A DNA stretch of 32,000 bases from Erysipelotrichaceae bacterium MTC7 (GTDB taxonomy: Bacteria; Bacillota_I; Bacilli_A; Erysipelotrichales; Erysipelotrichaceae), in assembly GCA_001695645.1 (NCBI GenBank), contig LVZN01000017.1, forward strand, positions 7,950 through 39,949. Reading direction: 5' to 3'. A program made the translations under genes and the position numbers. The number at the start of each line of letters is the position of its first letter. Within the stretch, counting starts at the first letter, position 1. Under the pieces are notes generated by a model, which did no database searches, had not been told where the DNA came from, and worked only from the letters and a program-made list of their open reading frames with translations. Below, piece after piece: positions 2,728 to 31,835 of the stretch.

Positions 2728-2731
2728 CCTA

Positions 2732-3729: not shown

Positions 3730-3820
3730 CTTAGGAGTAAATAAGGCATAGTGGTGTTAGTATATAACTATGGACACGGAAAGTTGAACATCCTATAATA
3801 TAAAAAAGGAGTGTTCTAAA

Positions 3821-4099: not shown

Positions 4100-4107
4100 C
4101 TGCGTAC

Positions 4108-5772: not shown

Positions 5773-5778
5773 TAGCAA

Positions 5779-6478: not shown

Positions 6479-6679
6479 GTGATAAGTGATACACAAAATG
6501 CACAATCTCCTACAAAGGAAAAAAAGACTTATACAGTAGAGGAAATTGCTGAACAACTGGACATTAGCAAAAAGGTAGCTTATTCATTAGTAAAAAGCGG
6601 TCAATTCAGTTATGTTCGTGCTGGTAAAGCCATACGGGTATCAAAGGTTTCTTTCGATAAATGGTTAAATGAAATTTAA
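6479..6679 (+). CDS. xis: Excisionase (Xis, MerR-like HTH)
   Basis: GTG at 6479 lies 8 nt after an AAAGGGG SD; an alternative ATG is at 6461. The segment YTVEEIAEQLDISKKVAYSLVKSGQFSYVRAGKAIRVSKVSFDKWL is a typical excisionase HTH. It sits immediately upstream of int. Confidence 0.7.
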   Translation: MISDTQNAQSPTKEKKTYTVEEIAEQLDISKKVAYSLVKSGQFSYVRAGKAIRVSKVSFDKWLNEI

Positions 6680-6697
6680 CTATAAGGAGAGAAAATT

Positions 6698-8351: not shown

Positions 8352-8428
8352 TGGCGTCCCAGACAGGAGTCGAACCTGCGACGTTTCGCTTAGGAGGCGA
8401 ACCCTCTATCCTGCTGAGGTACTGGGAC
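8352..8428 (-). tRNA. tRNA-Arg (anticodon CCU)
   Basis: A hand-folded cloverleaf from GTCCCAGTACCTCAGCAGGATAGAGGGTTCGCCTCCTAAGCGAAACGTCGCAGGTTCGACTCCTGTCTGGGACGCCA. It has a 7-bp acceptor stem, anticodon loop CTCCTAA, T-loop TTCGACT and an encoded CCA. Confidence 0.85.
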
Positions 8429-9712: not shown

Positions 9713-9752
9713 AAACAAAAACAAAAAAACAAGGGAATTCCTTTGAATCCCC
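9713..9752 (-). terminator. Rho-independent terminator ending the glycosidase operon
   Basis: Minus strand GGGGATTC-AAAG-GAATTCCC followed by TTGTTTTTTTGTTTTTG. Confidence 0.55.
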
Positions 9753-9895
9753 ATGTTTTTATATGTTTTCTCCAAAATTTTATTTTTTCGTAATATGGAT
9801 TTTTAAAAACAAATTCCATCTATCACAATCAGTCATCTGTGATTCAACACGCTTTGTTTTTGTGTAGGTATCTTTATAGATACCCTTACACCGTT

Positions 9896-12800
9896 TTATG
9901 CTTTATCTTTTTCATCTTTTCTACGCTTGATTAAAATGATAATGAATCCACTTCCAAGCAGTCCAAACATAAAGTAAATCACACCAGACAATTGTCCGTT
10001 TTGCATAATTGCGCCAAACGCTGCTTTTTGTCCCGTATTACTTCCTTTTACTTTACCCTTATCTTTGCCTGCACTAGCACTTTGACTGTCTGTTTGACTT
10101 TCGTTTTTACCTTCAGTCACCATAGAAATATCTTTTCCATTTGTGTCATCGTCATCTATATCAATGGAAGGTAGAACTTGACTTCCTTGTTTATCTTCCT
10201 CTTTTTCTACTTTTGTTTCATTAGACTTTCCAGGTTGCTCAGGAATCGTTGGCTCTGATGGTTCAGGTTTCACTTCTGGTTTTTCAGGCGTTTCTGGTTC
10301 TGTTGGTTTTTCGTCTTTGATTTCCAACGTTGCCAATGCTTCATCCAGTTTTTCTGATAACGCTTGTAGTTGTGCTGCTTCTACATCAGCTGACTGTTCT
10401 GGTGTTGCCAAGAATGCTTCCGCATCACTAACCACAGACATCAGTCTTGCCACGCTTGCTTCCGTATATGCCCCAAAGTTTGTTGCTTTGATTCCTTCTA
10501 CTTTTGCACTTAAGTATGAACGATCTACTTTTAAGCGTAGTTGCGCGATTGCTTTTGCAAGTTTATTTACTTGTGTACTGATTTGCTCTGCTGTTGCATC
10601 TTCATCTTCATACACTTCTTTTGCTTCTGCTAATGCTTCTAATAATGCACCGTAGCTTTCTTTTGTATATCGGTCTGCATTTGCATCTTTTGCCTCTGCT
10701 AGTGAAATCATGTATGCAAGTGCATCCTTACTTGGTTTTAATACCAATTGTACAAGTGTACTTTCCAACTGTTCATACGCTTCTTCAACCTCGTATGTAA
10801 GTGCTCCACCTTCAATACTCAATACTGCTTTTGCATTTTCTAGTGCAGCCATAAAGTTTTCTTTTGCTTCATTGTTCATGTAGTCATCTAAATTCACTGC
10901 AAGACATTCATCATAAAGTGCTTGTAACTTTGTCGTATCTGCTTTGATGTAATCAAGTAGTTCAAGTGCTTCTGTCAATCTAATAATTGAAAGACTCATT
11001 GCTTCACTTGTTGCATTTGCATCTTCATACAAGTCAATTGCTTCTTCTAGTGCAGCATAGTATTCTGCTTTTGCACCATCAATTAGCTTATCTACATTTC
11101 CGTTATCTACTTCAACTTGTGCGAGGTCGATGAAGATTTTCAGAATTTGTTTTTCCATAGATTCTGGTACCACTTGTTCCAATCCTTTATAAGCTTCATC
11201 TAATGAAGCGTATGCTTGATCAATTGCTTCTTGCGTTGGTGCATCACCACTTACGACTGCTTTTGCTGTCTCCAATGCTTCTTGAAGTGCAGTCCAGCTT
11301 TCTGGTGTATATGCTTCTTCGTCTAATGTTTCAACTGTCTCAATTAACGTGTTAAGTTCACTCATATCTACAGCAGGTTCTGCTACATCATAAACAACAG
11401 TAATCATCGTATCGGCACTTCGATCTTCCGCTACAAGGTAAGCTCTTTGCACGTGTTCGTATATTGGGAGTATCGTAGTTGCAGCATTGTTGCTTGTAAT
11501 ATCTAGTTCAGGGTAATTTGAATCCTCTAAACGAACAACATATGTCTTTGTTTGTTCATCATACGATTCAAAACCATTAAAAGATTCTATAGGCGTACCA
11601 TTTAAGGTAACTTCCTCGATATTGATTGAACCGTTTGCTTCAGGAACATTAACTGATTCATATACCTCAATTTCGGTTAATCCGATACATTTACCAACTG
11701 TTGGTGATTTCAGCCAAACCCTTAAACTTTGTGTTTCTATGGCATGAATAAAGCCATATGGTGTATCACCTGCAAGATAAGACACTTGGGTAATATGCGA
11801 TGATTCAATTTCTTTCCATGTATTATCTTTTGTATCTAAATATTCAAAACGAACATTATCGTCTCCAGGCACGACACTAAACGCATTGTCTGTAAAGTGC
11901 CATAGTTTTACATTTTGCATTTTATGTGGCTCTGACCAATCTAATTGCACATAAGTATCAACAGTAGGGTTTTCATTCCGAAGTCCCCAGTTTGTCCACC
12001 TTGCACTTTCTCTAACACTTTCTGTTTTTACACCATCATTTAGTTCTAGTAATGAGTCATTGATAGCTGTTGTACTTGGATCACTGACAACTCCATTTCG
12101 TAATGTCCCATTTTTAAATACAGGAGCACCTACAAAGTTCTTACTTGCAATATTTTTAGCATCCGCTAATTTATCAAGTACTCTAAGGCTCAAATTTGCT
12201 GTGTACACTTCATTTAAGACACTCAGAGAACCAACGATGTTTTTCATTCCCTTTGTTGCATAATCATCACTGCTGAGTTCCCAAGAAACTGGAAAATACT
12301 CACTAAATGTCCCATCAGCGTAAAATCCACGTAATGTCTGTGGTAGTTTTGGCATAACTTCCGCCGTTGTCATTGTTGCATAGTTTTCGAAAGCTACAAT
12401 ATCACCAATAACATGTATTTTCATTGTTACAGGAATGCTTTTTCCATCAATTGTACCTTCTACATCAAATACTTGAATTTCACTAACATCTTCTTCACTA
12501 ACTGCATTCCATGTAATAGATAAGTCAACCTTGCTTCCATCGCTGTTAGTACCTGTTACCGAACTTGGTAAGGCTGGTATCGTTCCTTGTGCCACGTAAA
12601 CATCTTTTGACATCGTGTAGTAGCTTAAGTATGCATCATCACTTGATGTATCTTTACCTGTTTGCACCGTTACACTTGTACTTTCTAGTCCATCGCTAGT
12701 GGCTTTTAGTGTGAATGATCCTTCCTCTTTTGTAGATTGCACAATAACCAGTGCTTTTCCACTAAACGCTTTGCGAGATGAACCCTTGTACGATTCAATG

Positions 12801-15292
12801 CTTGCTGCATTTCCATTATCGACACCAACAATTTTCCCATTTCCCTCTATGGAGAAATCAATCTTGTTATTTGCACCTGCTACAAAGTTACCATCAGCAT
12901 CTTGTACATCAACCGTGATATATGCAAGACTAGAACCGTTTGCGATAATTTCACTTTTGTCAGCGTTAGCAACTAATTTAGCTGTCGAAACAGTTGTTGT
13001 TGCTGATTGGTTTCCAACAGTTTCCTCAATTACATTTCCTTCTTTATCTAGTGCAACTGCACGAAGTGCTCCTGCTGCCCAAGTTACTTCAAATGATGGA
13101 TAGAATTTATTTCCAAACTTTTGATACTTGTATCCTGTTGTAGTTGTATATTCCGTCGCTGTTTGTGTTCCTACTTTTTCATCATTTAAGTACAATTCGA
13201 CCGTATGTGCATTTGAGTACACATCAACTTGTACTTTTCCATTCCCATTTTTGACAATCTCATCATTGTTCCAATTGGACATGATGTGTAATGTATCATT
13301 CTTTTCATCCCACAAGCTCTTATATAAATAATATGTATCTTTAGGGAATCCCGCAGTATCAACAATCCCAAAATACGAAGAATTCGGTGTTGGACCTTGA
13401 CCGCTTACACTTCCTTGACCTACTCCATTCCAAGGTGTTGGTTCACCTAAATAATCAAAACCAGTCCAAACAAATTGACCTGCATTAAAGTCGTTTTCAA
13501 TAACATAACTCCAAGCATTACTTGCAGAGTGACCCCAACCTACTTTTGCTTGATCGTTATCATATTCACTTAATTGAAGATTTGTTCCATCGGTGCCATA
13601 TGTACTATAAATACCACGACTATGAATCGCACTTGTTGTTTCAGCACCGTATAATTTCCATTCGGGATTTTGTGAATGCTTATTTTTGAATGCAGTTGCA
13701 GTAGCGTAGTTAAAACCAACAACTCCGCCTGCTTCATGAATGATTTGATCAATTTTTCCAACGTTCCCATCTCCGCGTCGGTTATCACCAATCGTTACTG
13801 GACGGGTTGCATCAGTTTCTTGAATCCAGCGGATAATATCACGCGATAATTCAACATAATGCGATGTATTACCAGATACTCCTTCATCAATTTCATTACC
13901 AATTGACCACATAATAATGGATGGATTATTAATACCACTTCTTACCATTGCTTTAGCATCAAACTCTCCCCATTTCATCCCCGTACTTCCATGGAGAATT
14001 TCATTATCTTCCTCAATAAGCGTATTAAAATACTTCGTGTAATCATTCGTATTTCCATTCTTATATTCAGTCCAACCATCAAAAGCTTCATTGATTACGA
14101 GCATTCCCTCTTCATCACAAATTTCAAGTAATGCTGTTGCAGCTGGGTTGTGTGTTACTCTAATTGCATTTGCACCCATTTCTTTTAGGATTTTAACTTG
14201 TCGTGCGATTGCATCACGGTTTGCGACAGCTCCTAACGATCCTTGATCATGGTGCATAGATACACCTTTAAGTTTCATTTTCTCACCATTTAGTGAGAAT
14301 CCAGTGTTTGCATCAAAGTTATAATGTCGGAATCCGTAAACCGTATCGTATGTATCTATTGTTTTATCAGCTTTGCTAACTTCAACACGAACTGTATATA
14401 AATAAGGATTCTCTATTGACCATGTTGTTACATTTTCAACATCCATAGTAGTATTGAATTCAGTTGTGCCATTTACTTCGATGCTTTTGTTTTGTTTTCC
14501 TGATGTGGAAACAATTTTCCCCTTTGCATCAACAAGGCTAGTTTTCACATCAACTGTTTGTCTATCTTCACTATCATTATCTACAGTTGTAACTACGTTT
14601 AATTCACCATTTCCATTTACAATGATATTTTCTGCATCTGCCGTTACAACAACTCCAGTGTTTGCCACATGCACTTCATCTGCAACCGTTAGTTTTACAT
14701 CGCGATAGATTCCACTACCTGAATACCATCGACTACTCGGTAGCTTATTATCTGTTTTTACCGCGATAACATTTTCTGTTTTCCCATCAATTACAAGATG
14801 GTCCTTTAAATTGTATGCAAATGCTGTATATCCATATGGATGTGTACCTATTTTCTTGCCATTTACATATATTTCTGAATTCATATATGCACCATCAAAT
14901 TCAATAGTAAGTTGTTTGTCTGCATATTTTTCTGGCACAATGAATTCTTTGCGATACCAACCAACACCACCAAGTAAAAACCCACTTTCAGCCTCACCAG
15001 CGACAGTAAACTCTGTATCTATACTATAGTCGTGTGGTAAAGTGATTGACTCCCACTCTTGTGTGTCGATTCCTTGTTTTTCCGCATCCTGTTTATTTCC
15101 ACGATAAAACTTCCAATTTTCATTAAAATTTGTTGTTCGCTCCGATTCCCCGATAATATCTACGTAAATATCCTCGGGTTTTGTGAAACTGACCTGTTCA
15201 TTATTTTTTTTCATAACGTTTGTATTCATTGGTAGACTTGTAAAACTAAGCAATGATACTAACGCTACAATACCAAGTTTTTTAATATTCAT
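9896..15292 (-). CDS. Giant secreted GH2 beta-galactosidase-type glycosidase with Ig-like and discoidin-type modules, a FIVAR-like helical stalk, a Pro/Glu linker and a C-terminal TM anchor
   Basis: Start MNIKKLGIVALVSLLSF (signal peptide) follows an AAAGGGGA SD; the track ORF begins 20 codons earlier. GH2 motifs: NWKFYRGN, WESITLPHDYS, NAIRVTHNP, IIMWSIGNE. The tail is ...QLSGVIYFMFGLLGSGFIIILIKRRKDEKDKA. Confidence 0.85.
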   Translation of the reverse strand: MNIKKLGIVALVSLLSFTSLPMNTNVMKKNNEQVSFTKPEDIYVDIIGESERTTNFNENWKFYRGNKQDAEKQGIDTQEWESITLPHDYSIDTEFTVAGEAESGFLLGGVGWYRKEFIVPEKYADKQLTIEFDGAYMNSEIYVNGKKIGTHPYGYTAFAYNLKDHLVIDGKTENVIAVKTDNKLPSSRWYSGSGIYRDVKLTVADEVHVANTGVVVTADAENIIVNGNGELNVVTTVDNDSEDRQTVDVKTSLVDAKGKIVSTSGKQNKSIEVNGTTEFNTTMDVENVTTWSIENPYLYTVRVEVSKADKTIDTYDTVYGFRHYNFDANTGFSLNGEKMKLKGVSMHHDQGSLGAVANRDAIARQVKILKEMGANAIRVTHNPAATALLEICDEEGMLVINEAFDGWTEYKNGNTNDYTKYFNTLIEEDNEILHGSTGMKWGEFDAKAMVRSGINNPSIIMWSIGNEIDEGVSGNTSHYVELSRDIIRWIQETDATRPVTIGDNRRGDGNVGKIDQIIHEAGGVVGFNYATATAFKNKHSQNPEWKLYGAETTSAIHSRGIYSTYGTDGTNLQLSEYDNDQAKVGWGHSASNAWSYVIENDFNAGQFVWTGFDYLGEPTPWNGVGQGSVSGQGPTPNSSYFGIVDTAGFPKDTYYLYKSLWDEKNDTLHIMSNWNNDEIVKNGNGKVQVDVYSNAHTVELYLNDEKVGTQTATEYTTTTGYKYQKFGNKFYPSFEVTWAAGALRAVALDKEGNVIEETVGNQSATTTVSTAKLVANADKSEIIANGSSLAYITVDVQDADGNFVAGANNKIDFSIEGNGKIVGVDNGNAASIESYKGSSRKAFSGKALVIVQSTKEEGSFTLKATSDGLESTSVTVQTGKDTSSDDAYLSYYTMSKDVYVAQGTIPALPSSVTGTNSDGSKVDLSITWNAVSEEDVSEIQVFDVEGTIDGKSIPVTMKIHVIGDIVAFENYATMTTAEVMPKLPQTLRGFYADGTFSEYFPVSWELSSDDYATKGMKNIVGSLSVLNEVYTANLSLRVLDKLADAKNIASKNFVGAPVFKNGTLRNGVVSDPSTTAINDSLLELNDGVKTESVRESARWTNWGLRNENPTVDTYVQLDWSEPHKMQNVKLWHFTDNAFSVVPGDDNVRFEYLDTKDNTWKEIESSHITQVSYLAGDTPYGFIHAIETQSLRVWLKSPTVGKCIGLTEIEVYESVNVPEANGSINIEEVTLNGTPIESFNGFESYDEQTKTYVVRLEDSNYPELDITSNNAATTILPIYEHVQRAYLVAEDRSADTMITVVYDVAEPAVDMSELNTLIETVETLDEEAYTPESWTALQEALETAKAVVSGDAPTQEAIDQAYASLDEAYKGLEQVVPESMEKQILKIFIDLAQVEVDNGNVDKLIDGAKAEYYAALEEAIDLYEDANATSEAMSLSIIRLTEALELLDYIKADTTKLQALYDECLAVNLDDYMNNEAKENFMAALENAKAVLSIEGGALTYEVEEAYEQLESTLVQLVLKPSKDALAYMISLAEAKDANADRYTKESYGALLEALAEAKEVYEDEDATAEQISTQVNKLAKAIAQLRLKVDRSYLSAKVEGIKATNFGAYTEASVARLMSVVSDAEAFLATPEQSADVEAAQLQALSEKLDEALATLEIKDEKPTEPETPEKPEVKPEPSEPTIPEQPGKSNETKVEKEEDKQGSQVLPSIDIDDDDTNGKDISMVTEGKNESQTDSQSASAGKDKGKVKGSNTGQKAAFGAIMQNGQLSGVIYFMFGLLGSGFIIILIKRRKDEKDKA
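10227..11371 (-). repeat. Copy A of the 1,145-bp near-identical direct repeat (stalk and linker coding region of GH2)
   Basis: Aligns to 21256-22400 with a constant offset of 11,029 at both ends, so no indels. By hand count there are about 28 mismatches. Confidence 0.9.
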
Positions 15293-15369
15293 AGATTCCC
15301 CTTTTATTAAATAAGTACTCTTGCTCTTTTCTATACCTTTAAGCAAGAGCACTTCACAATTGTATTATT

Positions 15370-18300
15370 TTAAATTCTTTCCTTTTTCTTTTTAAAGAGT
15401 AAAATCATTACACCTAAAAGTGAACTGATGCATATCAATCCTAAAGTTCCAGATTGTGTTTCATCACCACTATTCACATTCTTTGATGGTTTTGTTGAAG
15501 AGCCATCCTTTGTATCAACAGAAGGATTTGATATTACATAATCTGGATGATTTGGCTTTGTATGACTAGCATCTCCATTTGCTTTCTTTTCCAAGCCATA
15601 TACAGCTTCATCTAGTATTTTTGATAATTCCAGCATCATGTTTGCTTCTTGTTGTGCATCACCCTCTGGTGTTATTAAAAACGCTTCAACCTTTTCTATG
15701 GCTTCCATTAGTTTTGTAACGGAAGCTTCTGTATACATATCGTAAGAGATAGATTTAATTGCTTTTACCTTCTCTTCCAAGTAACTTCTATCAACTTTTA
15801 GTCGAAGGCTCGAAATTGCCATTGATAAATCCGATACCTGTTTTTCAACTTCTGCTTTTGTTGCTTCAGGATTATCGTAGACTACTTGTGATTTACTTAA
15901 TGCTTCAACTAGTGCAGCATATGAAGTTTCAGTATAACGTTCGTGCATTGAAGATTTACTATTTGCAACATTAATCAAGTATGCAAGCAAGCTCTTATCT
16001 GGTTTGCTAACCAATCCTGCGTATGTAGTATTTAAGTTTTCTAGTGCTTCATCGATTTCTGGTTGCAATGCTCCGCCTTCTAACGTTAGTATTCCATAAG
16101 CATATTCTAGTGCTTCAATAAATAGCTCTTTAGTAGCACCATTATGATATTTATCTAAATCAAGTGCATTACATGTGTCATATAATTGTTGAAGTAAAGT
16201 AAGATCACCTTTAACTAAGCTTAGGTATGTAAATGCTTCTGATAACCTTATAACACTTGCATTTACTTCTTCTTCTGTTGCATCCACTTTTTCATAAATC
16301 GTTTTTGCTTCTGCTAATGCTTCTAACACTTCTGTTTTTGCTGGACCAATTAATTCATCCACATATCCAAGTGTTACATTTTCATCCATCATATCAATGA
16401 ATAATTTCAATGCTGTTTTTTGAACATCCGTGCTTTCTGTTTCATCCTTTTCGAAAGTCACATTTACAATCGTATGCATTGTTGGGATGAATGTGTATGG
16501 GTTATCTGTAACTACAGTTGCTTCATCTCTTGTACGTTCACTAATAGACCAAGATTTAAAGACATAACCATTACTTGGTAATGCATTGATCGTAACTGAA
16601 CCATCTTCATTTCTAGTTACCTCAACTGATCCATGTGAAGTATCTTCAATTTTAATTTCTACCGAATATGGCACGAATTTAGTACTAAGATTAACATCAT
16701 TTTCAAATGGCTTAGCAACATCTACTTTAGTATCTCCTTCATAGTATCCATCAAATTCATATCCTGGCTTTTGAGGTCGTGGTAAGTCTAGCCCTTCACC
16801 TACAGGAACAAGATATTCCGTACCATCAATGTCAACAACATATGCTTCTCTTGTAAAACGAGCCTCCAAATTTGTATTCGCATTTACGGTAAATGTTAGT
16901 GTTGAATCTGTTGAAATCACTGTATCACTAAAATCAATCCACCCTATAAATACATATCCCTTTGCTGGTGTTGCCGTTAACGTTACTTCTGTACCAGCAT
17001 CATATTGCCCTGTACCGTCTACCGTGCCTTCACCAGTATAATCAACATATACATTCATCTGTGATTTAGGTATGGAAGCTACATCAAACTCAGACACAGC
17101 GACCCAACCATCATTTGATGACTTTGCAACAAACTTTATGTAACGAACGTCCTGTTCATCAAAGTAAAACGTCTTTTGCGAACGATCTGCTGCAAATAAA
17201 GCATCTTCAGCTACTTGAATCCATTCTTCATCATTTGAAGCCTTCACAAATAAATCTGCTTTAGTAACAAGACCACTATTTGTGTCTGTACGCGGTGTAA
17301 ATGAGAAACTATTAATTGTATAAGTTTCATTCATATCGATTTCAGCATAAAAAGTGTTGTTTCCTGTCAGTTTATCAGTTGCACCTTTCCAGTTAGAATG
17401 CCATATCGAAGATGCGTTATTATCAAACGCATAACTTAAACGACCTTCAACATCGTTATAAATTGTTTCCGTATTTGTTTGCCCAGCCCATGCACTCTTA
17501 TTGTATGTATCTACAGAATGTGTCTTGGACACTTTGACATTATCAATCGTCGCTTGCACTGCATTTGTCTTTGAGCCAATTCGTTGAATTGGAATGTTAA
17601 AACTAGCATTTGTTAGGTTTTCCTTCTTAAGAATATCGTTATGGAAATATTTACCAACAGCATTTCCAATAAATTTACCATTGACATGCAATTCTGTTTT
17701 TTGTTGCTTTGATACAATTCTAATATTTACATTTTTCCCCACAGGCAACGTATAGTCAAATTCATAGTCGTATAGCTCTCTTGTAAATCCAAGTTTACCT
17801 GATTCCATAATTCGAATATCCTGTGTACCATAAGCAGCATCACTTTCAAAAATGACTTGACCAGGTTTTCCTACCTTATTCATTGTAATATCAAAAGAAA
17901 GTTCATTACCCTTACCTACTTTTGTTATTGGCGTTTCAACATATGATTTTTTCTGATCCAAAACTAACGCATCCTCATCAAGTTTCGCTTTGTTTTCTAA
18001 TATGTCTCGATTGTTTCCACTAGTATCTGACAAATCACCGAAAGTATATGTCGCAAGTTCATCCGTCTTAGATTCCAATTGAAAATATGGATTCGTTCTT
18101 GGCCCAATTCCGACATTACTTGCAATTGTTGTGAGATTATCAATCGTTCCTTTTTCTTTTCCAGTTGCTGCCCATGTTTTTTCAGCATATACAGGTAAGG
18201 CATCAAAGAAACGATAGAAATAATCTGACTCATCTAAGCCGGAAGCATGTTTATCAATATTGTCACTCCATATAGCAAAAACTGCCCCTAAAGCTTGATC

Positions 18301-18639
18301 ATCTCCTGAAGGTATGTATTTCCATCCACTGCTTCTTGTTGCAACCAGGTTTGCTTCAAAATTATTAAATACACTATTTATGTTTAACAAATCTCCGTAT
18401 GCACCTCTTCCCATGCCTCCATTTGGAACCATGTAGTTATAACTATCAATGGTATTGATTAGTTTATAACCCATATCGTACATTTCTATGCCATCAGCCC
18501 ATCCTGAAGACCATAAATTCATTTCTACATTCTCAATTGCTTCATCTATGATTTGTGTTTTACCATCGTTAATCCATGTCAAACCACCCCACATACGCAC
18601 CGTGTTTGTTTCTTTAATATAGGGAACAATTTGATTCAC
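15370..18639 (-). CDS. C-terminal portion of an interrupted GH20 beta-N-acetylhexosaminidase gene (catalytic-domain remainder, lectin/discoidin-type modules, FIVAR-like stalk, TM anchor)
   Basis: Same reading frame as 18700-20892. The frame is open from 18699 and reads TIVHIGADEFLSDYTAYRKF before the GTG used by the track. There is no signal peptide of its own. The tail is ...ETQSGTLGLICISSLLGVMILLFKKKKERI. Confidence 0.75.
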   Translation of the reverse strand: MNQIVPYIKETNTVRMWGGLTWINDGKTQIIDEAIENVEMNLWSSGWADGIEMYDMGYKLINTIDSYNYMVPNGGMGRGAYGDLLNINSVFNNFEANLVATRSSGWKYIPSGDDQALGAVFAIWSDNIDKHASGLDESDYFYRFFDALPVYAEKTWAATGKEKGTIDNLTTIASNVGIGPRTNPYFQLESKTDELATYTFGDLSDTSGNNRDILENKAKLDEDALVLDQKKSYVETPITKVGKGNELSFDITMNKVGKPGQVIFESDAAYGTQDIRIMESGKLGFTRELYDYEFDYTLPVGKNVNIRIVSKQQKTELHVNGKFIGNAVGKYFHNDILKKENLTNASFNIPIQRIGSKTNAVQATIDNVKVSKTHSVDTYNKSAWAGQTNTETIYNDVEGRLSYAFDNNASSIWHSNWKGATDKLTGNNTFYAEIDMNETYTINSFSFTPRTDTNSGLVTKADLFVKASNDEEWIQVAEDALFAADRSQKTFYFDEQDVRYIKFVAKSSNDGWVAVSEFDVASIPKSQMNVYVDYTGEGTVDGTGQYDAGTEVTLTATPAKGYVFIGWIDFSDTVISTDSTLTFTVNANTNLEARFTREAYVVDIDGTEYLVPVGEGLDLPRPQKPGYEFDGYYEGDTKVDVAKPFENDVNLSTKFVPYSVEIKIEDTSHGSVEVTRNEDGSVTINALPSNGYVFKSWSISERTRDEATVVTDNPYTFIPTMHTIVNVTFEKDETESTDVQKTALKLFIDMMDENVTLGYVDELIGPAKTEVLEALAEAKTIYEKVDATEEEVNASVIRLSEAFTYLSLVKGDLTLLQQLYDTCNALDLDKYHNGATKELFIEALEYAYGILTLEGGALQPEIDEALENLNTTYAGLVSKPDKSLLAYLINVANSKSSMHERYTETSYAALVEALSKSQVVYDNPEATKAEVEKQVSDLSMAISSLRLKVDRSYLEEKVKAIKSISYDMYTEASVTKLMEAIEKVEAFLITPEGDAQQEANMMLELSKILDEAVYGLEKKANGDASHTKPNHPDYVISNPSVDTKDGSSTKPSKNVNSGDETQSGTLGLICISSLLGVMILLFKKKKERI

Positions 18640-18699
18640 AAACTTACGATATGCAGTATAATCTGAGAGAAACTCATCTGCTCCGATATGGACGATCGT

Positions 18700-20892
18700 T
18701 TAAGAATCAAAAACAGGATCCGCACCCTTTGTATATTCATCAAAAATTTCTTTTATTTTATCAATTGCACTTTGTTTTGAAACGTCAATGTGATCAATCA
18801 ATGGTCGGTTTCCATTTAAACTACTAACTTTATTTTTCACCATAATTTCAGGCCATATTTTCGTAAATGAATTAGCATGTGCAGGAACATCAATTTCAGG
18901 GACAATTCTCATTCCCATCGAACGTTCCGAATTTATGTACGTTTTGAATTCTTCTTTTGTAAAATAGTAATCTTCGGCTGTAGGTGATTCTCCCTCATCA
19001 TTCGTTAAACTTGTTTCCAAGCGGAATGCATCATATGCTTTAAACGCTTCATTTTCTTGATCACCTTTTCCATATTTTTCAAGGAAAATATAATTATCAG
19101 AAAGGTGAAGTTGTAAATCATTCATTTTGTAATAACGCATTGTTCTTGAAACTTCTTTTATTAATTCCATAGAAATAGGTTTTCTAGCTACATCAAACAA
19201 GAAACCTCTTACCTTAAATCTTGGATAGTCACGCATAGATCCAATGTTATATGATAATCTATTTTGCTTATTCATTTGCAAAATGGTCTGCATTGCATAC
19301 ATATTACCCGTAGTTGATTCACTTCTTGCAATTACACGATCAGCAAGAATATCCATTGTATAACCTTCATCACCAAGTAAGTTGTCTGGTGCATCTACTA
19401 TGAAATTAAACGCATTTGCTTGTTCGCTATCATTTTTTTCTTTGGTAAGTGTAATCCCAGTTTGAGATTCATAATCTAAGATGAACTCATCAACAATAGT
19501 TCCCAATGAATCATTTGTATATACGACTTTATCTATTGTTTGGATGTCCAAAGTATCTGTTGTATTACTTGTCCATTCTTGAATTTCCGGTATAACAACT
19601 GGTTTCTCGTTTGCACCTTCATCTGCTTGATGTCTTCCTTTAACTACATATGGAATATCGCTTGTTATTTTAGATTCATTAGTAACTAAATCCGTTACTT
19701 CAAATGAAACTTGTACCGTTTTATCAACAAGTGGATGAACAACCTTACCATTTGATGCAATTATTTGTTCTAGATCTGCTCCGTTTAGTTTGATATCAAA
19801 ACCTTCGGGTACAACAGGCAATTGAAAAGTCTCATCACTTATTGGCACTTCGCCTGCTTGTAACGTTGCGATCACGGTATCTAAAGTATACCTTTCCCCT
19901 TGCTCATTTGAGTATGCTTCAAATTCACGTATGCTTATGTTGTTATAGCTTGGCGCAACACCAACAAAATCACAAAGAGTTATGTTTTTTGCGATAATTG
20001 GTGTTTCTAATTTTACTTTCACATCTGTAGTCCAACTGTTTTCCGTAACTGATGTATTATTGTAATTTTGAAGTGCATAGACCTCTTCTCCAGCTAAATT
20101 CGTATACTTGACACTAAACGACTGAATATTTGAGTTGTTTGGTGAGACATCTCTATTTAGAAAATAAATGTGTAATTCTTGTATTTTCGTATATTCATCA
20201 AAATCAGCTTTGAGCCATTGGTTTGTCAAACTTGTGTAATCACTTGCCCATCTTGTATCTTTGTTTCCATCATTTGCTTTTTGTGCATTCAATCGATCAA
20301 GATTCTCTTCAATAGTTGAAGCTGAAATTACTGCTTCGCGAACATGATTCACATCGACTTCTTCATTAACTTTTACTACTTCATCTGCATAAACCTCAAA
20401 CTCTTTGACTCCGACATTTACCCAGTTAATAGTGCCTCCCGTTGCATCTAGAATCGTCAGTTTTAATTCTGTTACTTCTATTGACTCCGTTAAGACAATC
20501 TTTTCTTCTTGTTTGGCTTTTTCATATTTTTCAAATATTGTAACAAATGTTCCATTAATTTTTCCTTCAATTTTGTATCCGGTTATATTTTGATTCTCAT
20601 CAGATCTTTCAAACAAAAGACTCATTTGTTTTACCGTTTTCGCTTCATCAAAGGAAAGATTTATCCATTCATCTTTTGCCCTATTCTGTGCAGTTCCCCA
20701 ATGTGTGTTAACGTCTCCATCAATAGCTTTGCTTGCATTCGTTGCATCTACTTCATAGCTGCTCGCACTTATTGTTGCATCCAATGCAAGATTTGGATTC
20801 TCAGGCGATCTCAACAAATTTAAATTAGGAAATGCAAGCATATTTACTACAATCACTACAATTAGTAATACGTGTACAATTCTTTTTTTCAT
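18700..20892 (-). CDS. N-terminal portion of the interrupted GH20 gene (signal peptide, two discoidin/CBM32-like modules, GH20 N-domain and first half of the catalytic barrel), ending at an in-frame TAA
   Basis: Begins MKKRIVHVLLIVVIVVNMLAF after a GGGGGA SD. GH20 motifs: RGFLFDVARKPIS, LQLHLSDN, VPEIDVPAHANS. The stop TAA (18700-18702) lies 4 codons before HIGADE. Confidence 0.8.
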   Translation of the reverse strand: MKKRIVHVLLIVVIVVNMLAFPNLNLLRSPENPNLALDATISASSYEVDATNASKAIDGDVNTHWGTAQNRAKDEWINLSFDEAKTVKQMSLLFERSDENQNITGYKIEGKINGTFVTIFEKYEKAKQEEKIVLTESIEVTELKLTILDATGGTINWVNVGVKEFEVYADEVVKVNEEVDVNHVREAVISASTIEENLDRLNAQKANDGNKDTRWASDYTSLTNQWLKADFDEYTKIQELHIYFLNRDVSPNNSNIQSFSVKYTNLAGEEVYALQNYNNTSVTENSWTTDVKVKLETPIIAKNITLCDFVGVAPSYNNISIREFEAYSNEQGERYTLDTVIATLQAGEVPISDETFQLPVVPEGFDIKLNGADLEQIIASNGKVVHPLVDKTVQVSFEVTDLVTNESKITSDIPYVVKGRHQADEGANEKPVVIPEIQEWTSNTTDTLDIQTIDKVVYTNDSLGTIVDEFILDYESQTGITLTKEKNDSEQANAFNFIVDAPDNLLGDEGYTMDILADRVIARSESTTGNMYAMQTILQMNKQNRLSYNIGSMRDYPRFKVRGFLFDVARKPISMELIKEVSRTMRYYKMNDLQLHLSDNYIFLEKYGKGDQENEAFKAYDAFRLETSLTNDEGESPTAEDYYFTKEEFKTYINSERSMGMRIVPEIDVPAHANSFTKIWPEIMVKNKVSSLNGNRPLIDHIDVSKQSAIDKIKEIFDEYTKGADPVFDS

Positions 20893-20954
20893 ATATCCCC
20901 CTTGTTGTCATTATTATGAATGAAGCAAACAGTCTTCCTGTTTGCTTCAAAATA

Positions 20955-27656: not shown

Positions 27657-27693
27657 ACATATTTCCTCCTCTGTTTCTTGAACGTAGTTGAAA

Positions 27694-27744
27694 ACAAAAA
27701 AAGACTGACAAAAACACATAGTTACATGTGATTTCGTCAGTCTT
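27694..27744 (-). terminator. Leader terminator of the glycosidase operon, overlapping the RAT
   Basis: Minus strand AAGACTGAC...GTCAGTCTT (9-bp outer stem with an inner CACAT/ATGTG stem) followed by TTTTTTTG. The 5' arm is part of the RAT-like element. Confidence 0.7.
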
Positions 27745-27774
27745 GCCTTTTCGTTACAATCCAACCTTATCGAT
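27730..27774 (-). promoter_or_regulatory. RAT-like (ribonucleic antiterminator) element, short variant
   Basis: Minus strand ATCGATAAGGTTGGATTGTAACGAAAAGGCAAGACTGACGAAATC. Compare the SacY/LicT RAT consensus as I recall it, GG(A/T)TTGT(T/G)ACTG-N5-6-CAGGCAA(G/A)ACCTAAA. Confidence 0.65.
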
Positions 27775-27789
27775 TCAATTTACAATTTC

Positions 27790-27817
27790 ATAGTACCATA
27801 TCAAAGTGTCATGTCAA
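27790..27817 (-). promoter_or_regulatory. Putative sigmaA promoter of the glycosidase operon
   Basis: Minus strand TTGACA-16 nt-TACTAT, about 16 nt upstream of the conserved leader block. Confidence 0.5.
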
Positions 27818-27840
27818 TAAAAAATGAGAATTTTTACAGT

Positions 27841-29295
27841 TTAATAATTTTGCTCTTCATCTTTTTTGCTCAAAAAATGCTTTAATTCAGTTTCAACAAA
27901 ATCTAATATTGATTCCACTTGTGGTCCATACACAATTTGTATTTCACTACCAAAAAGCATATATTCTACTGCACCAGTAGTTTTGATTAATTCAAAGTTG
28001 AATAAGTTAGGATCTCTCAAATGAAAACGAATACGTGTAATACAACATTCAACAAATTGAATATTATCCACTCCGCCGACTCCCCGAATCAGAGTATTTC
28101 CAATACGTTCAATTTCTTCTTTTGTCAACAGGTCTCCAGAGGCAAGTATTCCACTAGTACTTTCTCTTCCCATCGTTGGTAAGTTCATTTTACGTATAAC
28201 ATAAACAAATAATATGTAATATATCGCACCGACAAAGATACCAAATACAATTAGCATAATCGGATCCTTTGAGAACGGCATGTTGTAACTTAAGACATAA
28301 TCAATGAATCCCGCACTAAAACTAAACCCAGCAATCCATTGAAACGAGGCAACAATGAATACACAAATTCCAGTCAATATTGCATGAAGAACATACAACT
28401 GCGGAGCAATAAACATAAAAGAGAACTCTAACGGCTCCGTTACCCCAGTAAAAAAGGAAGCAAATGCTGCAGAAAGTAAGAATGATTTTACACGATTCTT
28501 ATTTTGTGGATATGCCGTATGCAACATCGCAAGTGCCGCTGCCGGCAAACCAAACATCATAACAGGGAAAAAACCAGCTTGGTACATGCCAGTAATACCA
28601 TATGTACCCTTGCTTGCCCAGAAATTACCAATATCATTTATACCAATCACATCAAACCAAAAAACTGAATTCAACGGATGATGCATACCAACCGGAACTA
28701 ACAATCGATTGCAAAGAGCATAAATTCCTGCACCAAGTGGTCCCAAGGAACTAACCATTTCGCCAAACCCGATAAGTGTGTTATACAGGAAAGGCCATAT
28801 CCACAGTAAGATAAATGAGGTAAACATGGATATTACCAACAACCCAAACAACAAAACTATTGTTCGATTTAATCTACTTAACTTTGTCGTATAAAGAAAG
28901 TTGTAGGTAGTTGCTGCTAAAATTCCCGCAAGTATACCGATAAACTGATTGTCAATATTACGAAAAGAATCTTGCGCATCAAGTATAGGTGCTGCATAGT
29001 CACTTATATACATTGGATTTAAGATGTTTGTTATTATCAAAAAAAACATCAATCCATAAAGTGCAGTAAATCCTTGCTTACCCGTACTCATTCCCCAAGC
29101 AACTCCAATCGAAAATGCCATCGGCATATAGTTTAAAATCGTTGTTCCCGATGTTTGCAAAATAATTGCTAAGAAATGAACCCACTCAACTTCAATTCCT
29201 TCTATTGCATAACCTACTCCAGTCAATATAGCTGCAATTGGAAATATTGCAATCGGTAATAAGAGAGATTTCCCGATTCTTTGAAAGTAACTCAT
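27841..29295 (-). CDS. PTS EIICB permease, glucose/N-acetylglucosamine family (no EIIA domain)
   Basis: EIIC motifs: NRLLVPVGMHHPLN, MFGLPAAALAM, FFTGVTEPLEFSFMFIAP. The EIIB motif ECCITRIRFHLRD carries the phospho-cysteine. The start overlaps the antiterminator stop (ATGA). Confidence 0.85.
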   Translation of the reverse strand: MSYFQRIGKSLLLPIAIFPIAAILTGVGYAIEGIEVEWVHFLAIILQTSGTTILNYMPMAFSIGVAWGMSTGKQGFTALYGLMFFLIITNILNPMYISDYAAPILDAQDSFRNIDNQFIGILAGILAATTYNFLYTTKLSRLNRTIVLLFGLLVISMFTSFILLWIWPFLYNTLIGFGEMVSSLGPLGAGIYALCNRLLVPVGMHHPLNSVFWFDVIGINDIGNFWASKGTYGITGMYQAGFFPVMMFGLPAAALAMLHTAYPQNKNRVKSFLLSAAFASFFTGVTEPLEFSFMFIAPQLYVLHAILTGICVFIVASFQWIAGFSFSAGFIDYVLSYNMPFSKDPIMLIVFGIFVGAIYYILFVYVIRKMNLPTMGRESTSGILASGDLLTKEEIERIGNTLIRGVGGVDNIQFVECCITRIRFHLRDPNLFNFELIKTTGAVEYMLFGSEIQIVYGPQVESILDFVETELKHFLSKKDEEQNY

Positions 29296-30119
29296 TCGCT
29301 TATAATCTTGCTAATATGTATCATGAGATAAACTTTTTCATCTTTTTTTAATACATAGCGATAGTTCATTTTTACAATTTCTGTAATATTCTCCATACAT
29401 CTCTCCATTCGATTATTACCATCAAGCAAATAGGTATACATAGCATCTAAATCTAGTGGGTTTTTATTCTCGTTTGTAAAAATATGTTGTGCTAAGAACT
29501 TCAAATGTGTTTGTAAGCGTGATGTATTCAACGATTCATTATCAAAAGACACGTCAAACACATTTTCAATAATAGTTTGAATATCTTTTACGAAATGTAA
29601 AATTCGTTTAGCATTTCTTGATTGGTTACCAACTGTTGCATTTACAATGTGCATCGCAATGTAACTCGCTTCGTGAATTGAAAACTTTATTTTTGTATTT
29701 GCTTCTATAAGTTTCAGTGCCCATAAGCCAATCTTGTATTCGTCCTTATACAATGACTTTATCTCATTATGCATTAAGTTTGCAATCTCTACATTTCTTT
29801 TTTTTCTACTAGCAGCATACCAAAGGTGATCGGTAAGCGAAATTAGTATTTGGTTGCTTAATTCAATTTTCAGATCCTTTTTCGCTTTGCTTGCGATTGC
29901 TTCAGCAATTTGAAAATAGAGAATTGGTGTTCTACTTAACAACTCATGAAATTGCGTCTTCTGCCGATCTTCTAAGCTATATTGTTTCGCAATCAATGTT
30001 TGATTTACTTCATCATTCGCCTTCATTTTAAAGCCGATACCGTTCCCAGTAAGGATAAATTCTTTATTCCCATCGGTCGCAGCGACAACATTATTGTTAT
30101 ACACACGCACTATTTTCAT
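29292..30119 (-). CDS. BglG/LicT/SacY/GlcT-family PRD transcriptional antiterminator
   Basis: 275 aa. The N-terminal CAT RNA-binding domain is MKIVRVYNNNVVAATDGNKEFILTGNGIGFKMKANDEV, followed by a helical body of the length expected for PRD1 and PRD2. SD AGGAGGG is upstream. Confidence 0.9.
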   Translation of the reverse strand: MKIVRVYNNNVVAATDGNKEFILTGNGIGFKMKANDEVNQTLIAKQYSLEDRQKTQFHELLSRTPILYFQIAEAIASKAKKDLKIELSNQILISLTDHLWYAASRKKRNVEIANLMHNEIKSLYKDEYKIGLWALKLIEANTKIKFSIHEASYIAMHIVNATVGNQSRNAKRILHFVKDIQTIIENVFDVSFDNESLNTSRLQTHLKFLAQHIFTNENKNPLDLDAMYTYLLDGNNRMERCMENITEIVKMNYRYVLKKDEKVYLMIHISKIISE

Positions 30120-30131
30120 GTTCCCTCCTAA

Positions 30132-31403
30132 CTACAGTATCAATAAATCCTTTTGATCCAATAAAGCGTTCTCAATTAAAATATGCAATTCATCTGCTTC
30201 AGGTGTATCTATTGCAACTGTTTTATTAATTTTCTTAATTGCAAGTTTATCAGAATGAAATGTATCTGGTATATTAATATACATTTCTTCCACAACATTT
30301 ACAAAAATTTCATCATTATTTTTTTCAATTGATTCCACATTTTCATATCCACCTATCATCTCCATGACCATTTCAATTTCAGTTTTAGAGAATTTCGGTT
30401 TTGTTTCCTCTTCTAAGAAGTTTACCACTTTTTTTGAAAACAGCAAATATGTAAAAACGATTGTGTAGACGATGAAGCAAGTAAAAATAACGACTTCAAG
30501 TTCTACCTGATAATAAAAATGTAAGCTAAAAAAACTTGCATATATAAAAACATGGGCGAAAAAATATTTGGGATTCATTGCAAATAAAATAAACCCAAAT
30601 AGTAAGGTTGTGCCAGTAATAATTGATGATAAAATAAACAAGGTAAACAACACAAGATAAGACTTTTTATTCTGCTCATTGAAAGATAAAAATATTATCA
30701 ACAAAACTAATGGCATAACAACTCGAAAAATCTGCAACTCAAAACTATTCATGATACTCGTATTGTGAAGAACAGGTAAAAAAGAAATGCCAACCAATGA
30801 GCCTAGCAATTGTATGACTTTATAAAAAAAATAGCCAAGTCCATGTAGTGCATCTTTAAGTAAAGTAATTCGGATAATTCCCTTATAAAAAACTGGCCAA
30901 ATAATTACAATCAAAATCGAGATAGGTATCATAAAGAACCCTGTTAGGATTGGCACAAGACGTTTGCCTGAAAAGAAAGCAAATCCTGATGGTAAAGTAA
31001 TCCCTGAAAATCGATTGTTAATCTTGGCTGCAAATAGTCCACATAAAATACCAATAAATGGTGTATTAATATTATTTAAAGAAGTAAATTCAGAACCCAA
31101 GACTCCATCTAAAGCCACGTTCAACAATTCAATAGAAGCTATATTTGTCAATACAATAAATGCTATAATTCCACTAAGCACAGCAGTTGCATCTTTTTTA
31201 TTTGAAAAAAAATAAGCAAAACATGCTGCCAACAATAAAGGGTAATAGTTTAAATATGCGGGTAATAGGCTTGAAAAAAATGTACCAAAACTTGTGTGAA
31301 ACAGTTGATTGATCACATCGCCAAACCAATGTAGTATAATGAGAACAGGTATTAATAATGATGAAAACACTAAACTGCTCGTATATCTTTTAAAGATATT
31401 CAT
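30132..31403 (-). CDS. Degenerate PTS EIICB-like membrane protein (EIIC core motifs and EIIB cysteine lost)
   Basis: The N-terminal half aligns to glucose-family EIIC (NTPFIGILCGLFAAKINNRFSGITLPSGFAFFSGKRLVPI). GITEPxEF is replaced by ITGTTLLFGF, and the HH and GLPAAA motifs are absent. The C-terminal EIIB-like fold MIGGYENVESIEKNNDEIFVNV has no Cys where CITRxR is expected. Confidence 0.7.
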   Translation of the reverse strand: MNIFKRYTSSLVFSSLLIPVLIILHWFGDVINQLFHTSFGTFFSSLLPAYLNYYPLLLAACFAYFFSNKKDATAVLSGIIAFIVLTNIASIELLNVALDGVLGSEFTSLNNINTPFIGILCGLFAAKINNRFSGITLPSGFAFFSGKRLVPILTGFFMIPISILIVIIWPVFYKGIIRITLLKDALHGLGYFFYKVIQLLGSLVGISFLPVLHNTSIMNSFELQIFRVVMPLVLLIIFLSFNEQNKKSYLVLFTLFILSSIITGTTLLFGFILFAMNPKYFFAHVFIYASFFSLHFYYQVELEVVIFTCFIVYTIVFTYLLFSKKVVNFLEEETKPKFSKTEIEMVMEMIGGYENVESIEKNNDEIFVNVVEEMYINIPDTFHSDKLAIKKINKTVAIDTPEADELHILIENALLDQKDLLIL

Positions 31404-31480: not shown

Positions 31481-31509
31481 TTGACTTTTCATGGTTTTAT
31501 ATTTATCAT
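31481..31509 (+). promoter_or_regulatory. Putative sigmaA promoter driving the plus-strand RAT leader
   Basis: TTGACT-17 nt-TATCAT, 15 nt upstream of the conserved leader block. Confidence 0.5.
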
Positions 31510-31523
31510 TTATCTATAAGTTC

Positions 31524-31573
31524 ATCGATAAGGTTGGATTGTAACTACGAAAGTAAGCAAGACTAACGAAATC
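31524..31573 (+). promoter_or_regulatory. RAT-like element, full-length variant, on the plus strand
   Basis: ATCGATAAGGTTGGATTGTAACTACGAAAGTAAGCAAGACTAACGAAATC. It shares a 22-nt block and a 17-nt block (1 mismatch) with the leader at 27730-27774, and it has the apical TAC-GAAA-GTA hairpin that the other copy lacks. Confidence 0.65.
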
Positions 31574-31606
31574 TCTCTCAAAGGGTTTTCTTGTCTTGTT
31601 TTTTTA
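31558..31606 (+). terminator. Terminator-like hairpin overlapping the plus-strand RAT
   Basis: CAAGAC (inside the RAT) pairs with GTCTTG, with inner GAAA/TTTC pairing, followed by TTTTTTT. It is weaker than the leader terminator at 27694-27744. Confidence 0.45.
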
Positions 31607-31718
31607 TTGGCTTTTGTAGTACTTGTTTCCATAATGTATTTACTGTGTTACATAATGACAGGCAAAACAACATTGTAAATATACGATTCTCCAAACAAAC
31701 AAGTACGACAAAAGCCAA
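31607..31718. repeat. 22-bp inverted repeat (1 mismatch) enclosing 68 nt in gene-less DNA
   Basis: TTGGCTTTTGTAGTACTTGTTT (31607-31628) pairs with AAACAAGTACGACAAAAGCCAA (31697-31718). A second hairpin, GCCAACAAT...ATCGTTGGC (31714-31761), competes for the GCCAA segment. Confidence 0.5.
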
Positions 31719-31771
31719 CAATCATTAACAGGTACGAATCTCAAATAACGTAATCGTTGGCTTACCTGCAA

Positions 31772-31814
31772 AAAGTGCACTCAGTTGTTTGAATCCAACA
31801 TTCGAGTGCACTTT
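31772..31814. terminator. Bidirectional rho-independent terminator
   Basis: AAAGTGCACTC-21 nt-GAGTGCACTTT (11-bp stem), flanked by an A-run on the left and T-rich sequence on the right. It lies 22 nt beyond the stop of the convergent gene at 31836. Confidence 0.6.
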
Positions 31815-31835
31815 ATTTCGTTACTATTTTGTCTT

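Follow-up and report, generated by a model that had tools for sequence, protein, structure and literature searches.

A predicted LicT-type antitermination switch ahead of a surface glycosidase operon in Erysipelotrichaceae bacterium MTC7

Erysipelotrichaceae include potent mucin and host-glycan degraders. Transcriptional antiterminators of the LicT/SacY family receive two control inputs from the phosphotransferase system (PTS), a negative one via enzyme IIB (EIIB) on the first PTS regulation domain (PRD1) and a positive one via HPr on PRD2. Weak ribonucleic antiterminator (RAT) hairpins are the norm in this mechanism. Here we consider 32,000 nucleotides of the genome of Erysipelotrichaceae bacterium MTC7 (contig LVZN01000017.1, forward-strand positions 7,950 to 39,949; hereafter the window), in which genes for a LicT-like antiterminator and a PTS permease of the glucose/N-acetylglucosamine (GlcNAc) family are followed by three very large glycosidase genes of families GH84, GH20 and GH2.

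The closest described counterpart is found in Enterococcus faecalis, where NagY, a protein of the BglG/SacY family, is co-transcribed with the GlcNAc PTS NagE (PMC9981650). NagY binds with nanomolar affinity to a RAT that overlaps a terminator upstream of hylA, and induction of hylA by GlcNAc requires NagY (PMC9981650). HylA is a wall-anchored PL8 host-glycan lyase with F5/8-type-C and FIVAR domains (PMC9981650), and the NagY regulon, as defined by RNA-seq and RNA immunoprecipitation sequencing (RIP-seq), adds glycosyl hydrolases ef0114 and ef2863, among others (PMC12502629). In Bacillus subtilis the beta-glucanase LicS, an extracellular enzyme, is under the control of LicT, and SacB, a secreted levansucrase, under that of SacY (PMC12591593). 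As defined, Gram-positive polysaccharide utilization loci (gpPULs) combine one or more glycan-degrading enzymes with a transcriptional regulator and a carbohydrate transporter, and PTS-linked gpPULs are on record (PMC5320581). An earlier, sequence-only reading of the MTC7 locus had assumed that such switches normally gate permeases and cytoplasmic enzymes, which LicS and SacB contradict (PMC12591593). It knew of no characterized example, yet NagY/NagE/HylA has essentially the same wiring (PMC9981650, PMC12502629), and the Gram-positive counterpart of a polysaccharide utilization locus that it proposed already exists as a concept (PMC5320581). The MTC7 locus is a further example of a scheme shown in Enterococcus and Bacillus, not a new type of system.

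On the minus strand of the window the order is EIIC with a pseudo-EIIB segment, antiterminator, EIICB, promoter, RAT/terminator, GH84, GH20, GH2 and terminator (Table 1). The glycosidase genes form a unit of about 18 kb that lies in cis behind the RAT/terminator. We consider it rather likely that a canonical BglG/SacY/LicT-type antitermination switch gates this operon, and its wiring looks real. The promoter of the GH84 leader is separated from the EIICB stop codon by no terminator. Within the leader, RAT and terminator have nucleotides 27744-27736 in common, and the junction between them reads GCAAGACUGAC. The terminator folds at -23.4 kcal/mol (z=-6.5), with a 13+6-bp stem whose 5' arm includes AAGACUGAC; for the leader in its entirety the value is -38.5 kcal/mol (z=-5.2). 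By itself the RAT reaches -2.0 kcal/mol, no better than shuffled sequences, and a weak RAT against a strong terminator is the expected default-off design. A simple terminator scanner missed the leader terminator because its loop exceeds 8 nt, so that folding was used instead. From the U-tract to the GH84 start codon there are 34 nt, including the ribosome-binding site, and neither inspection nor the scanner identified anything promoter-like between the terminator and the GH84 ATG. A search of both RAT-bearing leaders of the window for catabolite-responsive elements (cre, the sites of CcpA) gave only matches with two mismatches, which were not used as evidence.

To identify RATs, RAT-like elements were gathered from related loci (designated by L numbers) and aligned. 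An initial covariance model, R1, was circular because it included the RATs of the window itself; its successor, R2, drew on 12 RATs from other genomes and on no window sequence. Run over the whole window with filters off (64 kb, both strands), R2 gave exactly two significant matches, the 29-nt RAT of the GH84 leader (27.5 bits, E=1.3e-5) and a divergent RAT described below; the next match, and the best of the background, had E=0.52. In a 14-sequence alignment the LicT-type interrupted hairpin of the class is 94.5% paired, four of the eight pairs show double-sided changes, and sliding the partners by 1-3 columns lowers pairing to 11-66%. In an Rfam scan of the entire window (E<=10) neither RAT site was matched.

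The antiterminator (A4S06_10365 of MTC7, 100% identity) carries its RNA-binding domain at residues 1-54 (PF03123, 62.9 bits, cutoff 25), which matches the LicT and SacY CAT structures 1l1c and 1auu. LicT is its best NCBIfam model (245 bits, cutoff 300), with GlcT at 163 bits. Alignment to LicT (1tlv/1h99) indicates that all four regulatory histidine motifs are kept (SLTDH, IAMHI, LQTHL and LMIHI), so both control inputs of the family may apply. The EIICB gene is translationally coupled to the antiterminator gene via an ATGA overlap. EIICB has the active-site motif CITRIR, and its best NCBIfam model is the N-acetylglucosamine IIBC TIGR01998 (468 bits, cutoff 553), with glucose IIBC at 301 bits. 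Having an active EIIB cysteine, it is the predicted cognate PTS partner that would control the antiterminator. The first protein of the module is different. It has no EIIB match in a Pfam profile search, and the EIIB-like segment at its C-terminus keeps GGxxN[IV] but has lost the active-site cysteine of CITR[LIV]R (MIGGYENVESIEKNNDEIFVNV versus GVGGVDNIQFVECCITRIRF in the true EIICB). The same cysteine is missing from the orthologues in L001-L003. The loss is conserved across genera, and the pseudo-EIICB gene is the first gene of the module in L001-L006 and L030-L032. Without the cysteine, the protein cannot act as a normal PTS phosphocarrier. It may be a sensor, anchor or facilitator, possibly dedicated to the antiterminator.

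Table 1. Coordinates of the features of the MTC7 locus within the window
Feature	Position	Strand	Basis
Promoter TTGACA-16-TACTAT with TG extension, directly past the EIICB stop	27790..27817	-	10/12 matches
RAT UUGGAUUGUAAC-GAAAA-GGCAAGACUGAC, minimal apical stem	27736..27764	-	Covariance model R2
Leader terminator, 5' arm AAGACUGACGAAA overlapping the 3' side of the RAT, U7GU4 tail	27691..27744	-	Folding
EIIC-type membrane protein, 423 aa, pseudo-EIICB	30132..31403	-	PF02378, 52 bits
LicT/BglG-family PRD antiterminator, 275 aa	29292..30119	-	CAT_RBD and two PRD domains
EIICB permease, glucose/GlcNAc PTS family, no EIIA domain	27841..29295	-	PTS_EIIC (168 bits) and PTS_EIIB
GH84 beta-N-acetylglucosaminidase, 2,233 aa	20955..27656	-	NAGidase, 290 bits
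Hairpin between GH84 and GH20, 12 bp, no U-tract	20921..20949	-	Sequence; scanner calls neither promoter nor terminator
GH20 beta-N-acetylhexosaminidase frame, 1,840 codons, TAA-interrupted	15370..20892	-	Glyco_hydro_20 domains
Weak promoter-like site TTTAAA-18-TAAAAT before GH2	15396-15367	-	Scanner
Hairpin between GH20 and GH2, poor U-tract	15314..15353	-	Sequence
GH2 beta-galactosidase, 1,798 aa	9896..15292	-	GH2 N, immunoglobulin-like, TIM and C5 domains
Operon-end terminator GGGGATTC-AAAG-GAATTCCC, then T-rich run	9713..9752	-	Sequence
Second RAT unit: promoter TTGACT-17-TATCAT (31481-31509), RAT (31534-31567), terminator (31557-31606)	31481..31606	+	
Structured non-coding RNA downstream of the second RAT	31607..31814	+	Folding (z=-5.9), comparative

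The sequence-only reading had drawn much of this anatomy, and most of it stands. Its open reading frames (ORFs), its promoter (with the upstream TG), the ATGA coupling and the end terminator were all recovered. Pfam and NCBIfam searches support the PTS, antiterminator (CAT_RBD and two PRD stretches), EIICB (PTS_EIIC and EIIB), GH84 (NAGidase, F5_F8_type_C and FIVAR), GH20 and GH2 assignments that it had made. The overlap of RAT and terminator is borne out by R2 and by folding, and the switch that it proposed gains comparative support from the RAT class, from folding and from a GH84 leader of another organism (see below). It was right about EIIC in the first protein, and wrong to call that protein EIICB-like without qualification, as the EIIB part is a cysteine-less pseudo-segment. 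The GH20 domains were confirmed, but not the single reading frame of about 1,839 codons, which a TAA interrupts. The enzymes, which it called cell-anchored, end in a hydrophobic helix with a basic tail, and the anchor is not of the LPXTG type. The hairpins poor in U within the operon are also present, but they may not be its only internal signals, given the weak candidate promoter before GH2. Sensing of an imported monosaccharide through EIICB is plausible for GlcNAc, from the NagE-type best match and a link of the RAT class to nagB, although EIICB falls under the NagE cutoff.

Like the NagY-NagE pair, the MTC7 locus encodes a BglG/SacY-family antiterminator together with a GlcNAc-family permease, the RAT in the target leader overlaps a rho-independent terminator, and the targets include glycosyl hydrolases and surface host-glycan enzymes with F5/8-type-C and FIVAR domains. 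The NagY system is induced by GlcNAc, the predicted inducer at the MTC7 locus. NagY is autoregulated, whereas no RAT precedes the EIIC(pseudo-EIIB)-antiterminator-EIICB operon of MTC7; upstream of 31403 R2 found no minus-strand match, the only match there being on the plus strand and pointing away. NagE is an EIICBA, whereas the MTC7 permease has no EIIA domain, and the 3' junction of the RAT is GCRUGGA for NagY (PMC9981650) and GCAAGAC in MTC7. The NagY target hylA encodes a PL8 lyase and is controlled in trans, whereas the MTC7 targets are three exo-glycosidases in cis within one 18-kb unit, and these have no LPXTG anchor. MTC7 also differs in lineage (Erysipelotrichia), and its locus would carry NagY-type logic beyond Enterococcus, into a further class of Bacillota and onto exo-glycosidases that lie in cis.

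With the B. subtilis systems LicT-licS (bglS)/bglPH and SacY-sacB the locus shares the antiterminator architecture, the four histidines, the terminator overlap and a nearly identical RAT core (GGAUUGUUAC...GGCAAAAC), and in both cases the gated genes include exported polysaccharide-acting enzymes (PMC12591593). The substrates of LicT/SacY systems are plant beta-glucan and sucrose, whereas host glycans are predicted for MTC7. Their enzymes are small and soluble, in contrast to the multidomain MTC7 enzymes of about 2,000 aa, which are predicted to be membrane-tethered, and their PTS partners belong to the beta-glucoside or sucrose family rather than to the glucose/GlcNAc family. The locus falls within the published gpPUL definition (PMC5320581). 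Most gpPULs combine ABC transporters with DNA-binding regulators, whereas MTC7 has an RNA-binding antiterminator and a transporter of the monosaccharide product. What is known of the antitermination mechanism itself is unchanged by this locus.

The nearest sequenced relatives of the regulatory module are in Breznakia spp. (antiterminator identity 68-69%), and the gene order EIIC(pseudo-EIIB)-antiterminator-EIICB is conserved in Breznakia, Longicatena, Faecalicoccus and other Erysipelotrichaceae. Three conspecific metagenome contigs (L019-L021) match the window at 99.4-99.5% identity; the G+C content of the window is 35.7%. RATs of the same class occur before nagB (L022) and before an EIIA-Glc gene (L001). 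They are also found in Clostridium and Erysipelothrix loci (L008-L011), where they precede genes for NagE-like EIICB proteins. In four loci of the Breznakia type the RAT unit follows a divergent EIIA gene, just upstream of a separately promoted PP-loop/nagB operon. A metagenome scan for an extended RAT signature returned two loci only, L022 among them. The species also has a paralogous EIIC-antiterminator-EIICB module, which comprises an EIIA-Glc gene, its own RAT of the same class and an antiterminator that shares 71% identity with the one described here. In this paralogous module, as in B. blatticola, the stop codon of the divergent EIIA-Glc gene is followed after 8 nt by a RAT/terminator (RATs at L030 1453-1486 and L001 8094-8127, both minus strand), downstream of which lies only a convergent major facilitator superfamily (MFS) gene.

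A comparable arrangement was also identified ahead of GH84 itself. In another organism of higher G+C (L024 and L026, whose identical leaders probably come from one organism), a GH84 orthologue of 62-68% identity has its own promoter (TTTACA-17-TATAAT), a RAT (38.5 bits, apical stem with a GCAA tetraloop) and an overlapping terminator. No PTS gene is near this GH84. Only these two of six inspected GH84 contexts have the RAT, so RAT control of secreted GH84 appears to be recurrent but not general. One of the others, L025 (1-12695), from another metagenomic organism, is a giant cluster of GH2 (1,843 aa), a GH29 fucosidase (2,075 aa) and GH84 (1,564 aa), with no RAT before GH84; the cluster begins beyond the DNA examined.

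From sequence, folding and the established LicT/SacY mechanism the following sequence of events can be proposed. Transcripts would start at the leader promoter or read through from the EIIC-antiterminator-EIICB genes, and by default would stop at the leader terminator, short of the GH84 start. When EIICB is busy transporting its sugar, PRD1 of the antiterminator would be left unphosphorylated; if PRD2 is phosphorylated by HPr, signalling that no preferred sugar is present, the antiterminator would dimerize. Its CAT domain would then clamp the weak RAT hairpin, and the bound RAT would sequester AAGACUGAC, block the terminator and allow the polymerase to read into GH84-GH20-GH2. The three enzymes would be exported and held at the surface by their C-terminal membrane helix, where, judging by family membership, they may strip beta-galactose (GH2) and beta-GlcNAc or N-acetylhexosamine (GH84, GH20) from host glycans of the N-acetyllactosamine type. 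Freed GlcNAc could enter via EIICB and sustain induction, a feed-forward loop that would need a leaky basal level of enzyme. The same antiterminator probably also opens the divergent RAT/terminator, allowing transcription of a conserved non-coding RNA. The inducer is most likely GlcNAc or a close amino sugar, because the best family match of EIICB is NagE-type and because the RAT class is linked to nagB.

The GH84 enzyme has a signal peptide-like N-terminus, CBM32/F5_F8_type_C and FIVAR domains, and a C-terminal transmembrane helix with a basic tail. Its N-terminal region best matches PDB chain 6pv4_A (688 bits), with NagJ O-GlcNAcases at 174 bits, and the catalytic ILADDA is kept. GH2 is built similarly, with a signal peptide-like N-terminus, Big_4 and FIVAR domains and the same kind of C-terminus. 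It matches the beta-galactosidases 5dmy (833 bits), 6qub/7nit and 4cu6; we take 7nit and 4cu6 to be the B. bifidum and S. pneumoniae BgaA enzymes. The GH20 frame contains an in-frame TAA at 18700-18702 just ahead of the HIGADE catalytic motif (...PVFDS*TIVHIGADEF, the asterisk marking the stop), which cuts the Glyco_hydro_20 domain at profile position 156 of 348 and leaves pieces of 730 and 1,089 aa. In the 99.4%-identical contig L019 the GH20 gene call is uninterrupted (1,840 aa) and spans exactly 20892->15370, so the stop is a strain-specific nonsense allele or an error and not a feature of the species. An exact-protein look-up of the transaldolase, aimed at the GH20 stop region in other strains, gave no match.

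All three enzymes (9896-15292, 15370-18639 and 20955-27656) end in Ser-Gly, a hydrophobic helix and a tail rich in K/R (KKKK/RRK). No LPXTG motif and no Pfam hit to Gram_pos_anchor (PF00746) were identified in them. The NCBIfam sorting-signal search gave only partial, sub-threshold matches to LPXTG_anchor (TIGR01167) and Loki-CTERM; those to TIGR01167 extend over no more than the helix and tail (profile positions 6-32 and 12-33). Such ends could simply be membrane tail-anchors, or they could represent a sorting signal of an undescribed kind. GH2 and GH84 also share, in their C-terminal parts, a direct repeat of 1,145 bp (10227-11371 and 21256-22400, 97.6% identity). Set against a strain divergence of about 0.5% elsewhere, this repeat suggests recent gene conversion or module exchange.

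BgaA and StrH of Streptococcus pneumoniae belong with the surface-tethered glycosidases of mucin or N-glycan foragers. The MTC7 enzymes resemble the surface GH84/GH20/GH2 sets of Bifidobacterium bifidum (PMC10245121) and Allobaculum mucolyticum (PMC8409761) in families and in modular build, namely signal peptide, CBM32/F5_F8_type_C and FIVAR. Unlike the sets of these three bacteria, the MTC7 genes are contiguous and lie behind a RAT/terminator. A literature search identified no report of PTS/antiterminator control of the surface glycosidases of B. bifidum, A. mucolyticum or S. pneumoniae, and no paper linking an antiterminator to GH84/GH20 in Erysipelotrichaceae. A. mucolyticum, also a member of the Erysipelotrichaceae, has secreted glycosidases that are glycan-induced, and its describers state that the inducing cues and components are unknown (PMC8409761). 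It is on this account that the MTC7 locus is of practical value, as it offers a concrete candidate route of induction for glycosidases of this family, a GlcNAc-type PTS and a LicT-like antiterminator acting on a 29-nt RAT. The RAT covariance model also offers a means of mapping such regulons in metagenomes of the gut.

The predicted mechanism is well supported by comparison, but several points weigh against a switch as we describe it. The RAT of the GH84 leader has an apical stem of a single C-G pair, scores below other members of its class (27.5 versus 33-41 bits) and, as noted, folds alone no better than shuffles. Glycosidases are downstream of none of the nine other modules examined (L001-L006, L030-L032), and a RAT of this class is absent from four of the six GH84 contexts (L025, L027, L028 and L029). 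GH20 is broken in the window, and with internal hairpins and a weak promoter-like site ahead of GH2 the three genes might be uncoupled from one another. EIICB scores under the curated NagE cutoff and no EIIA gene is encoded in the window, and the paralogous antiterminator of the same species is a second candidate for the cognate protein of the GH84 RAT. The EIICB score and the paralogue would fit a real attenuator that answers to another antiterminator, such as the paralogue whose module includes EIIA, or that reports another sugar, such as glucose or an amino-sugar disaccharide. We regard this as unlikely. The RAT of the paralogous module is of the same class, the RAT core of the GH84 leader is near the general LicT/SacY consensus, and the core also occurs beside antiterminators of only 33-41% identity (L008, L009 and L013). 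However, the GH84 RAT and the RAT adjoining its own module have GGAUUGUAAC...GGCAAGAC and 21 nt of 5' flank in common, whereas the RAT of the paralogue reads AGAUUGUUAC...GAGCAAAAC, and GlcT-type RATs (GGCAUGAG, in L009) also differ. As to the sugar, EIICB matches glucose IIBC models as well, but the link of the RAT class to nagB speaks for amino sugars.

The hairpin and U-tract might instead be a constitutive terminator of the PTS operon that carries a relic of a RAT, with the enzymes expressed by leak-through or from an unrecognized start. This would suit its position, about 100 nt past the EIICB stop with no other terminator between, the degenerate apical stem and instability of the RAT, and the orthologous modules elsewhere that lack glycosidases. 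Yet the EIICB stop and the terminator are separated by a strong promoter, with nothing promoter-like after the terminator, and a RAT that is significant with an independent model is the same in three conspecific contigs despite differences at about 0.5% of sites. Weak RAT hairpins being usual in this mechanism, and the same design preceding GH84 in L024/L026, we judge a purely constitutive terminator very improbable. Rated lower again is decay of the glycosidase operon in this lineage, which would leave the switch without biological output. The in-frame TAA lies within the GH20 catalytic domain, and the GH84/GH2 repeat suggests recent recombination. Against decay, GH84 and GH2 are intact over their full lengths, the catalytic motifs are kept, GH20 is intact in the 99.4%-identical contig, and the lone nonsense codon may be strain-specific or an assembly error. 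An antitermination switch answering to the adjacent module thus remains the reading that we prefer.

The second RAT unit of the window, divergent from the module and beyond the span of the sequence-only reading, holds its best-scoring RAT (34.3 bits, E=1.4e-7 with R2), overlapped by a terminator that folds at -14.4 kcal/mol (z=-3.5). Both TCGATAAGGTTGGATTGTAAC and GCAAGACTRACGAAATC are common to this unit and the GH84 leader. The two leaders are identical over the 21 nt that run up to and into the RAT, match at 16 of 17 nt after it, and differ mainly by loss of the apical stem in the GH84 RAT. This likeness suggests that the glycosidase operon acquired a copy of an existing RAT, and by extension that it may have joined an amino-sugar RAT regulon that was already in place.

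Downstream of the second RAT we identified no conserved ORF in about 210 nt; the small ORFs of 31600-31830 are not conserved between species, and the region holds no remnants of the coding genes found in Breznakia, only the non-coding sequence of the unit itself. Rather, the region appears to form a structured RNA, with a long-range helix (31609-31716), an inner hairpin with AAUGACAGGC in its loop, and a bidirectional terminator (31772-31814) that closes the unit and faces the end of a convergent gene. The unit, with its own promoter, RAT and terminator, also occurs in four Breznakia-type loci (L002 ~7620-7000, L003 ~8000-7530, L031 ~8040-7590 and L032 ~5250-4840, all minus strand). In no fewer than four Breznakia-type genomes its neighbour is the orthologous PTS/antiterminator module. 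In the four loci it ends in a terminator-like hairpin (clear in L003 and L032), followed by a fresh promoter of the next operon. The helix core GUACUUGUUUC/GAAACAAGUAC is common to the window and the four loci, and the long-range helix shows a compensatory change (UAG/CUA to UGG/CCA). AAWGACAGGC is always in the hairpin loop, whereas the stem sequences vary between species. An Rfam scan gave no match beyond micro-RNA noise on the long hairpin, and a search for trans targets with the loop returned only its own complement within the DNA examined.

We propose the second unit as a candidate small RNA (sRNA) gated by the antiterminator. More tentatively, the antiterminator regulon may extend past the enzymes, with the second RAT gating a structured RNA that possibly acts in trans and with the pseudo-EIICB possibly serving as sensor or anchor; we see this as possible but doubtful. 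If the RNA does act in trans, it would be a PTS-antiterminator-controlled riboregulator that links other genes to the sensing of amino sugars.

A mobile element (996-8143) takes up the left third of the window, beside tRNA-Arg(CCU) at 8352-8428 on the minus strand. It carries Erm(B) (565.7 bits, cutoff 525), a PrgP/ParA-like ATPase, an IS3 transposase, a sigma-70 region-4 protein, an HTH_17 excisionase-like protein and a tyrosine integrase. The element fits the multi-resistance reported for MTC7, an isolate from a swine manure pit (PMC5034128). Within the element, overlapping the start of the HTH_17 ORF, is an Rfam match to pemK RNA (6275-6338, plus strand; E=0.007) that scores 34.8 bits, exactly the gathering score.

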